A DNA stretch of 64,000 nucleotides from a virus (lineage: Duplodnaviria; Heunggongvirae; Uroviricota; Caudoviricetes), in the IMG/VR virus record IMGVR_UViG_2690316121_000006; one strand, given 5' to 3'. This document shows positions 7,289 to 8,562 of this stretch, piece after piece. The position numbers and the translations under genes are program-made. The notes below the pieces were generated by a model, which was given only the letters and a program-made list of their open reading frames with translations, was not told where the DNA came from and ran no database searches. Every line of letters begins with the position of its first letter. The stretch's first letter is position 1.

Positions 7289-8263
7289 TTATCCGTTACC
7301 GCGCGACGGTTTCTGCGTGATAAACGTCTCAAGCATCTTTTCCGCAATTGCCGACCAGGTGTGACACTGGACCTTTTCAGCATTTTTCACGCGATCAACG
7401 CGAGCAATAACCTCATCCCAATCAATCCGCGACTTGATAACCATATGGTTCACCAACTCCAGGCGATCCGGCGGAAGGCAATCGGGCGGCGTTAATATCA
7501 ACGCTCCACACATTGCCGCCTCAAGAACAGTTAATCCAAGGCTTTCGGGATGCGTAACGATAAAAACGTCACTCTTACGCAATTCAGCTGCAAATTCGGT
7601 TGCTGGTACCGGCGTCCGTCTGTATGGGATTACCGATATATTCCCCGGATCAATGGTAATCAATCCGTCATCGGTCAACGTTCTGGCCTCATACGGAACG
7701 GCCAGGCGCTGAAGGTTCATAAGGATACTTAAGGAGTGATCAAAACCACTAACATCAAATGCCGCATGGTCTACAAAAATACGCAGAACATCGTCTGTTT
7801 TGGTTTCCAGATGGAACAGCTCCTGATTCGCTGCCCATCCAACATGTTTGTTAAAACGATTATGACGCTCTAACCTGCCTGGATTATCCAGGTACCGCCA
7901 GGTATCATCGCGGACAGTAAAAGTAATATCGACTGGTGCCGAATCCAGCATAGAACCGTCGTATACCTGGGCTACCCATCCAGTGAATCGACGACGCAGT
8001 TGCACGCCTATTTCCCTGGGCACCGTAGTAAAATACCTCAATCCTGGTGCCAAAATGGCCTTCGCAGAACATGCGGTCGCAGCAGTCAACACAGCTTCAA
8101 CATAATCCTCCGGGCTTTCGACGCCGGGGGAATATGGACGATGGTATTGCAATGTAACCCCTGCCTCACTAAAGGCGCAGGCCAGGTTATAAGCCCACAT
8201 TTCCGTATATGTTTTCACATCACTGATAGCTTCAAATTTTCGCCCAATGATCAGGATGTTCAT
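7289..8263 (-). CDS. GT4-family (GT-B fold) glycosyltransferase
   Basis: 324 aa; C-terminal ESLGLTVLEAAMCGALILTP contains the EX7E motif of retaining GT4 enzymes. Confidence 0.55.
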   Translation of the reverse strand: MNILIIGRKFEAISDVKTYTEMWAYNLACAFSEAGVTLQYHRPYSPGVESPEDYVEAVLTAATACSAKAILAPGLRYFTTVPREIGVQLRRRFTGWVAQVYDGSMLDSAPVDITFTVRDDTWRYLDNPGRLERHNRFNKHVGWAANQELFHLETKTDDVLRIFVDHAAFDVSGFDHSLSILMNLQRLAVPYEARTLTDDGLITIDPGNISVIPYRRTPVPATEFAAELRKSDVFIVTHPESLGLTVLEAAMCGALILTPPDCLPPDRLELVNHMVIKSRIDWDEVIARVDRVKNAEKVQCHTWSAIAEKMLETFITQKPSRGNG

Positions 8264-8562
8264 TGCGTCTCCTTTTCCCTGACTAAAAGCTCATCCAGCT
8301 TGCTTTTATGTTTGAGCACATAGCCACATATTTTTCCTTTGGAGCTAATTTGCGGAATGGAATAATATTCCGAAAATACTAATTCAGCCTTTTCTAAGAC
8401 AAGTGAAACACCATAGCGCGCAACATGTCTGTCGGTCATTTTTGCATCACTGAGATTACCTTTAATTGATAACCAGTCGTTGAGGTACATATGGTTGCGA
8501 TTGGCTTTTTTCAGCATGTTGCTCAACCAATTTTTATTACGCTTAGTTAGTTTCCGTTGCAT
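8260..8562 (-). CDS. hypothetical protein between ban and the glycosyltransferase
   Basis: 100-aa ORF with start/stop overlaps on both sides (translational coupling). Confidence 0.35.
   Translation of the reverse strand: MQRKLTKRNKNWLSNMLKKANRNHMYLNDWLSIKGNLSDAKMTDRHVARYGVSLVLEKAELVFSEYYSIPQISSKGKICGYVLKHKSKLDELLVREKETQ

Follow-up and report, generated by a model that had tools for sequence, protein, structure and literature searches.

The 64,000-nucleotide (nt) stretch of viral DNA analysed here (IMG/VR record IMGVR_UViG_2690316121_000006, hereafter the window) carries three tightly packed leftward genes: ban, which codes for a DnaB-type replicative helicase, a small open reading frame of 100 amino acids (aa), ORF100, and a gene for a 324-aa glycosyltransferase-like protein (Table 1). 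By megablast, positions 7000-10000 match 18 phage records (P1, P7, SJ46, RCS47 and relatives) at 97.6-98.4% identity, and the E. coli plasmid NZ_CP009051.1 matches the region at 99.7-100%; these matches identify the window as a P1-type phage-plasmid. The third gene corresponds to P1 dbn and P7 glt. Its product is 97-98.5% identical to P1 Dbn and P7 Glt over 324 aa, matches phrog_2518 (E 1.6e-231) and falls in the orthologue group of P1 dbn; as in P1 and P7, the gene lies between ban and gene 5 and is followed by the same terminator. The existing labels read 'function unknown, possible glycosyltransferase' in P1 (P1_gp078), 'putative glycosyltransferase' in P7 and 'glycosyltransferase family 4 protein' in RCS47. 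An earlier note on this DNA had called a sugar transferase unexpected at this place; the gene was in fact already known as a P1 accessory gene, with a tentative annotation about twenty years old. The window differs from these three phages in keeping ORF100 intact.

The annotated length of Dbn varies with the start codon chosen: 332 aa in P1, 287 aa in P7 (where the annotation begins at an internal Met) and 324 aa in the window, the latter form being backed by all homologues. The ratio of nonsynonymous to synonymous divergence (dN/dS) between the window gene and P1 dbn is 0.12, a value which, together with the invariant motif residues described below, led us to reject the idea that Dbn is a pseudoenzyme. 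Synonymous divergence from P1 is 0.12 for dbn versus 0.036 for ban (ratio of 3.4), which suggests a recombination boundary near the ORF100 indel. In a CRISPR interference (CRISPRi) table, dbn is scored NE, i.e. non-essential, as are pmgO, pmgP and pmgQ, the other genes of concern here (PMC10695390). The study of single-gene knockouts cited by that table reported 24 of 29 mutants without plaque defect and an unaltered antirestriction (PMC9024508).

Table 1. Position of the features of the window around ban, ORF100, dbn and pmgO/pmgP
Feature	Position	Strand	Remarks
pmgP, second WaaZ/MptE-like protein	168..794	-	tblastn with neighbour from prophage locus L016: 51%, E 2e-53
pmgO, WaaZ/MptE-like putative ulosonic-acid transferase	692..1354	-	tblastn with neighbour from prophage locus L016: 42%, E 2e-42
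Tail/baseplate block (26-25-7-24-6-5), ending in gene 5	2491..7242		stands between dbn and pmgO/pmgP
Gene 5, baseplate hub / needle OB domain	6610..7242	+	convergent with dbn
Hairpin terminator with A-run and U-run flanks	7242..7268		free energy -18.5 kcal/mol, z -3.88
dbn (P1 gp078; P7 glt), predicted 324-aa soluble GT-B / GT4-like glycosyltransferase	7289..8263	-	EX7E at E240-E248
ORF100, 100-aa basic protein (isoelectric point 9.9), fold family unassigned	8260..8562	-	phrog_12809; indel gene coupled to ban and dbn
Predicted sigma-70 promoter P1dbn	8783..8815	-	inside ban; identical to the P1-annotated sequence
Predicted promoter P2dbn	9172..9199	-	P1 annotation; also caught by consensus scan
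ban, DnaB-type replicative helicase, 456 aa	8562..9932	-	Pfam DnaB_C 6e-108, DnaB 3e-35
tRNA	10208-10283	-	upstream of ban
tRNA	11911-11986	-	upstream of ban
tRNA	11989-12064	-	upstream of ban
Strong terminator-like hairpin with T8 run	12538..12557	-	between ban promoter and tRNAs, within the P1 'dicF-like region'
C1-controlled ban promoter/operator (P1 P1ban / Op72ab)	about 12718..12747	-	exact match to the annotated P1 sequence
dmt	12738..15002	-	upstream of ban

The three genes are joined by overlapping codons: the stop codon of ban (a gene 99% identical to P1 ban) and the start of ORF100 share the sequence TAATG, the stop of ORF100 and the start of dbn share ATGA, and an AGGAG stands 7 nt upstream of the latter. 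The hairpin after dbn (none of 200 shuffled sequences folded as stably) closes the ban operon and is a bidirectional terminator, serving also the convergent gene 5. At the other end, the ban promoter/operator (Op72) overlaps the 3' end of dmt; therefore the ban operon proper begins after dmt. The single leftward operon proposed in the earlier note thus holds for dbn, which is co-transcribed with and translationally coupled to ban and ORF100; the tRNAs are upstream on the same strand, and dmt lies outside. We concluded that the C1-repressed ban operon ends with dbn, to which translation extends by coupling, and that this end is a variable cargo slot of which dbn is one occupant.

The assignment of the 324-aa protein to the GT-B, GT4-type transferases, which the earlier note had based on the EX7E signature ESLGLTVLE, was supported by fold and motif. 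The signature occupies residues 240-248, and E240, S241, G243 and E248, hence both glutamates, are invariant in a 55-member alignment. The full set of 14 invariant residues is D102, W143, A144, D165, H166, D175, F234, T237, H238, E240, S241, G243, E248 and G253; 74 homologues, the most distant at 28% identity, were retrieved from a large protein collection. The predicted structure shows the two Rossmann-like domains and inter-domain cleft of the GT-B fold, and no hydrophobic segment suggestive of membrane insertion was seen in Dbn. The predicted fold and the donor-site motif together mark Dbn as a soluble, divergent GT-B, GT4-like glycosyltransferase; here the family alignment and the model are the stronger evidence, that from sequence comparison being thin when taken by itself. 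The profile comparison with the GT4 family, also proposed in the note, gave a divided answer: the motif region was matched (residues 221-307 only, Pfam Glycos_transf_1), but with 24.0 bits, below the cut-off of 26.4. Some close homologues have a precomputed PF00534 hit, and the NCBI cluster is named 'glycosyltransferase family 4 protein'. Against the PDB sequences, the Dbn profile matched by its EX7E region alone, which aligned with those of 8xsg, MshA and WaaG; outside this region, no profile match to Dbn was obtained in PDB, NCBIfam or PADLOC.

Compared with the retaining GT4 enzymes of GT-B fold (WaaG, PimA, BshA, GlgM, sucrose-phosphate synthase), Dbn is shorter, is 8-15% identical and scores below the Pfam gathering threshold. 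In GT4 enzymes, the first C-domain strand is usually followed by a Gly-Arg ... Lys clamp that holds the donor diphosphate. At that site, as judged from secondary-structure register and not from superposition, Dbn has the invariant D165-H166 and D175, so that the G-R...K clamp appears replaced by D-H...D; the near-invariant R216 and R267 fall elsewhere. This replacement leads us to think that the donor, or the donor chemistry, may be atypical.

The partners proposed here for Dbn are encoded by pmgO and pmgP, at the left end of the window, and by pmgQ, which follows ppp just outside it. The tblastn queries that matched pmgO and pmgP (Table 1) were the two proteins encoded upstream of the Dbn-like gene in a P2-like prophage (L016). 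The two genes are paralogues, their reading frames overlap by about 100 nt, and they are labelled 'putative morphogenetic' in P1 and 'alpha-2,3-sialyltransferase' in RefSeq. With hhalign, the PmgO/PmgP family aligned with E. coli WaaZ over 197 columns (probability 95.5%, E 1.4e-8); Pfam MptE-like matches were sub-threshold. Judging from these similarities, PmgO and PmgP probably transfer Kdo-type ulosonic acids. Among the relatives of PmgQ, the DxDT, GDQ and HGxP motifs are invariant and the DxD segment aligns weakly with the GT8 enzyme WaaJ; PmgQ is a small protein that falls short of the GT8 enzymes by about 100 residues and probably belongs to the GT-A fold class. The E. coli enzymes WaaZ (Kdo III) and WaaJ/WaaO (GT8) and the Maf/MptE-like (DUF115) proteins thus resemble the partners of Dbn, not Dbn itself, and do so at identities below 20%. 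PmgO-like genes were found in 73 phage records (PmgP was not separately searched), often within head modules; in D3 the gene is placed between the major head and adaptor genes.

To survey how the four genes are arranged, the collected loci were searched by tblastn with each of the P1 proteins. In prophage L016 and phage EP_H11 (L005, OP688485.1), they are contiguous, with overlapping codons, in the order O-P-Dbn-Q; in L018 they are contiguous in the order P-Dbn-Q-O. Further loci (L007-L010, L106-L108 and L111) have Dbn then Q, and in L109 a gene for an FkbM-family methyltransferase is intercalated between the two. A Dbn-like gene adjoins a PmgQ-like gene in 10 of the 12 non-P1 phage loci examined, and complete four-gene sets occur in three lineages. 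The product of the gene directly after the Dbn-like one is 48% (L016), 38% (L018), 35% (L005) or 30-33% (L007/L009) identical to P1 PmgQ. The window and P1 have all four genes in the genome, in two loci about 6 kb apart (pmgO-pmgP-ppp-pmgQ versus dbn), and ppp fills in P1 the slot held by Dbn in the compact cassettes. By gene neighbourhood, dbn is therefore linked to pmgO, pmgP and pmgQ, from which we infer a shared pathway; their link as one module appears to be undescribed in the literature searched. In EP_H11, an unannotated PmgP-like reading frame (locus positions 4400-5008, 46% identical to the window PmgP) was found to fill an apparent gap of 564 base pairs (bp) before the Dbn-like gene.

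About 15 Dbn neighbourhoods were examined in all. A first scan of IMG/VR gave mostly P1-like loci; a second, led by a distant homologue, gave six non-P1 loci. Relatives of Dbn are found in L018 and phages EP_H11 and IME392 (47-49% identity) and in the prophage L016 (46%), all with similar cassettes; that of L016 is coupled to the portal gene and adjoins a KAP NTPase gene. Homologues at 40-42% (L015, L017) belong to group-2 capsule loci of the Kdo type; in both, the gene immediately follows one for an MptE-like/WaaZ-like protein, with the genes for KpsMT, KpsC/S, KdsA and KdsB close by. Since species-representative bacterial genomes contained 3 Dbn-family loci only, the family is rare in bacterial chromosomes. 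At 31-35%, homologues occur in sugar-enzyme clusters of very large phage contigs (up to 281 kb), and at 32% in a siphophage (L109), between the connector and head-closure genes and together with the FkbM methyltransferase gene. The sugar-enzyme cluster shared by the 281- and 127-kb contigs (L007/L009) consists of genes for a GT8-like protein, a CTP-transferase/cupin fusion, the Dbn-like and PmgQ-like proteins, an uncharacterised protein and a methyltransferase, to which L007 adds Exostosin-like and pyruvyl-transferase-like genes. Stenotrophomonas phage RAS14 (L006, positions 4590-6248) encodes a 552-aa protein, the middle part of which corresponds, at 26% identity, to the C-terminal 60% of Dbn; its 320-kb genome also has a PmgQ-like gene, at a distance of about 12 kb.

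ORF100 is a real gene. It matches phrog_12809 (E 9e-46), its 22 homologues (93-113 aa) share an invariant basic N-terminus, MK.KL..RNK, and its confident structural model (predicted local distance difference test, pLDDT, 92.6) combines a helical hairpin with a small sheet and has a helix at the C-terminus. It is AT-rich (38.6% GC versus 48.5% for ban). An exhaustive phmmer search gave 6 representatives only, and profile searches of PDB, NCBIfam and PADLOC gave no match. Where P1 and P7 have 13 bp, the window has 288 (8264..8551). P1 retains the first 11 nt of ORF100 and a remnant of its end, annotated as an N-terminal extension of Dbn (MQWNEEKP): P1 therefore carries a 288-bp deletion, and the conserved Dbn begins at MNIL. 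In the P1 sequence (NC_005856, 72659-72683), the 332-aa Dbn starts on the relic ORF100 start codon (MQW.. versus MQR..). ORF100 was lost through this deletion in P1 and most relatives: it is absent from P1, from all 18 phage records having dbn and from about 85% of the P1-like plasmids with dbn; it is present in 52 of the 442 PLSDB plasmids with a ban-dbn junction (absent from 390) and in 13 of the 80 P1-like loci of IMG/VR (absent from 67). The existence of this ban-coupled indel gene, the relic of which explains the odd N-terminus of P1 Dbn, appears to be undescribed in the literature searched.

The wider distribution of ORF100 indicates to which neighbour it belongs. Four distant elements of the P1 type, all devoid of dbn, have a homologue immediately behind ban: phage JK004 of Cronobacter, one contig from Pantoea and two from Salmonella (L004, L011, L012, L013). 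They share the gene order dmt ... ban ... convergent baseplate genes, and the homologue always starts at, or overlaps, the stop codon of the helicase gene and is followed by unrelated cargo, not dbn. Across these elements Ban is 76-81% identical, the ORF100 homologue only 28-41%. In one Salmonella contig (L012) the cargo after ban includes two ORF100 paralogues (5004-5330 and 6821-7126), split by the gene of a 367-aa protein without Pfam match. In Avunavirus phages a homologue is found in the early region, in a group of small genes and behind one for an RlaP-like nucleotidyltransferase; neither ban nor dbn is present there and no helicase gene is nearby, which rules out that ORF100 is always helicase-linked. 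The earlier note had seen in ORF100 a small partner gene of the transferase. If it were a functional subunit or chaperone of Dbn, the overlap of its stop codon with the dbn start on one transcript would be accounted for, but its absence from most dbn elements, while dbn is under purifying selection, its presence behind ban in elements without dbn and its occurrence in Avunavirus early regions already contradict this view, to which we give hardly any credit. Because its homologues follow ban without dbn and most dbn elements lack it, ORF100 is, on this comparative evidence, best described as a fast-evolving basic companion of the Ban helicase. Neither similarity to lambda P, DnaC, DciA or G39P nor a DnaB contact was found that would make it a helicase loader or regulator; a role as helicase modulator or anti-defence factor is our guess from position and evolutionary rate only.

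The view that we favour, and hold to be somewhat more probable than not, is that dbn, a known P1 gene, contributes the GT-B enzyme to a phage glycosylation module of four genes and is not a gene of DNA metabolism. In the C-terminal domain of Dbn, the invariant T-H-x-E-S-x-G...E (EX7E) loop would bind a nucleotide-sugar of the host, and the enzyme would add one sugar to a short glycan begun or lengthened by PmgO, PmgP and PmgQ. PmgO and PmgP may use CMP-Kdo, which fits the fact that every named host genus of the phages with PmgO-like genes is Gram-negative. In the P1 annotation, the late promoter LPpmgL and C1 operators precede pmgL..pmgQ, and Op72 precedes the ban operon; with both loci behind C1 operators and a late promoter, the four genes are therefore expressed in lytic growth. 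Because of this lytic/late control and of the relatives located inside head and neck modules, the favoured acceptor is a phage-made virion protein, for which we see somewhat less than an even chance; the main alternative, the lipopolysaccharide (LPS) core or another envelope glycan, is put lower, at about three chances in ten. The picture as a whole is offered more tentatively: through a previously unrecognised P1 pathway of four enzymes, virion proteins (or the LPS core) would receive a short, possibly Kdo-containing glycan in lytic growth, the O-P-Dbn-Q module would circulate in compact form among siphophages and P2-like, EP_H11-like and very large phages, and ORF100 would be a helicase modulator or anti-defence factor that has mostly been lost. 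Virion glycosylation cassettes have reportedly been described by Freeman et al. 2023 in mycobacteriophages Che8 and Corndog; they are said to comprise several phage glycosyltransferases, sometimes with methyltransferases, in or near structural modules, and to be dispensable for plaques. The proposed P1 module resembles them in gene placement and dispensability; here the hosts are Gram-negative and the glycan is predicted from the genes.

Several facts weigh against the idea of a virion-directed module. The sequence similarity of Dbn to GT4 enzymes is confined to the EX7E region, and the residues at its clamp site are unusual. In P1, dbn and pmgO-Q belong to different transcription units. In JK004, the P1-like phage of Cronobacter, PmgO and PmgQ (with space for P between them, and no ppp either) occur without Dbn, which would therefore be an optional fourth enzyme; conversely, the Citrobacter phage-plasmid type (L014/L110) has Dbn and no O, P or Q within 5-6 kb. 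The closest non-phage homologues of Dbn are those of the capsule loci, and a PmgQ-like gene occupies a lambdoid moron slot beside lom and tail-fibre genes; both favour an envelope-glycan target. Lastly, the literature searched held no report of a glycan on P1 virions or on the LPS of P1-infected cells, nor any biochemistry of the four proteins.

The capsule and lambdoid contexts give weight to the possibility that the target of Dbn, acting alone or together with PmgO/P/Q, is the LPS core or another surface polysaccharide of the infected cell. The P1 receptor is glucose of the LPS core. For example, a WaaZ-like Kdo and hexoses could alter or truncate the receptor core, so that superinfection, or the loss of progeny on debris, is reduced. 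The homology of the PmgO/P family to WaaZ, an LPS enzyme, points in this direction, as does the vicinity of the L016 cassette to the KAP NTPase gene, in a region of P2-like prophages which we take to be a moron/defence hotspot. The alignments of the HP..EX7E loop of Dbn with WaaG and of the DxD region of PmgQ with WaaJ go the same way, but are weak and motif-confined. Both P1 loci are expressed in the lytic phase, however, when pre-existing LPS of the outer membrane cannot be replaced, and many relatives are within head or neck modules; envelope remodelling is rated as somewhat unlikely. A little less credible still, in our opinion, is that Dbn works alone as a moron on a host or phage acceptor, with a host sugar-nucleotide, and that the PmgO/P/Q neighbourhood reflects no shared pathway in P1. 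The separate operons, the position of dbn at the variable end of the ban operon, where other P1-like elements have unrelated cargo, and the cases of JK004 and L014/L110 would all be explained, and the greater synonymous divergence of dbn than of ban suggests separate recombination histories. It is the adjacency of Dbn and PmgQ in most non-P1 phage loci, with full sets in three lineages, and the presence of all four genes in P1 that speak against it.

DNA, named in the earlier note as a possible target, now appears a most improbable acceptor. That Dbn glucosylates phage DNA against restriction is suggested by its sharing an operon with a helicase gene, downstream of the DNA methyltransferase gene dmt and of the tRNAs. 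P1 DNA, however, is routinely cut by ordinary restriction enzymes. The fold of Dbn is nearer to that of GT4 enzymes, and its family neighbours are glycan enzymes, capsule genes and virion genes; no gene of a hydroxymethyl- or hydroxy-pyrimidine pathway was present in the 15 or so neighbourhoods. The T4 DNA alpha-glucosyltransferase and the arabinosyl-5-hydroxycytosine transferases of HY126 and RB69 need a hydroxylated pyrimidine provided by a phage thymidylate-synthase homologue (PMC13326640). Unlike in these systems, a thymidylate-synthase-type gene stood beside none of the Dbn homologues examined, and Dbn did not qualify as a phage DNA-glycosyltransferase. The P1 knockouts free of a plaque defect had, as mentioned, an unaltered antirestriction (PMC9024508), and it is this study that the CRISPRi table (PMC10695390) cites for dbn.

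The gene dbn itself being known, what appears new is its link to the module and the recognition of ORF100. P1 ranks among the coliphages in widest use, and clinical Enterobacteriaceae often carry P1-like phage-plasmids. The link turns four 'non-essential' orphans into a single hypothesis that can be checked with existing knockouts; if virions are glycosylated, this would matter for host range, for recognition by the immune system and for how stable P1-based delivery vectors are. The presence/absence polymorphism of ORF100 (present in about 12-16%) provides a natural handle on the regulation of a phage helicase.

Two minor points concern the segment between the ban promoter and ban. With Rfam at gathering threshold, the three tRNAs were the only hits, and no small RNA family was detected in the 'dicF-like' region that contains the terminator-like hairpin. 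The tRNA closest to ban was called Met (CAT) by ARAGORN; in the P1 annotation it is tRNA-Ile2, with a lysidine-modified CAT anticodon.

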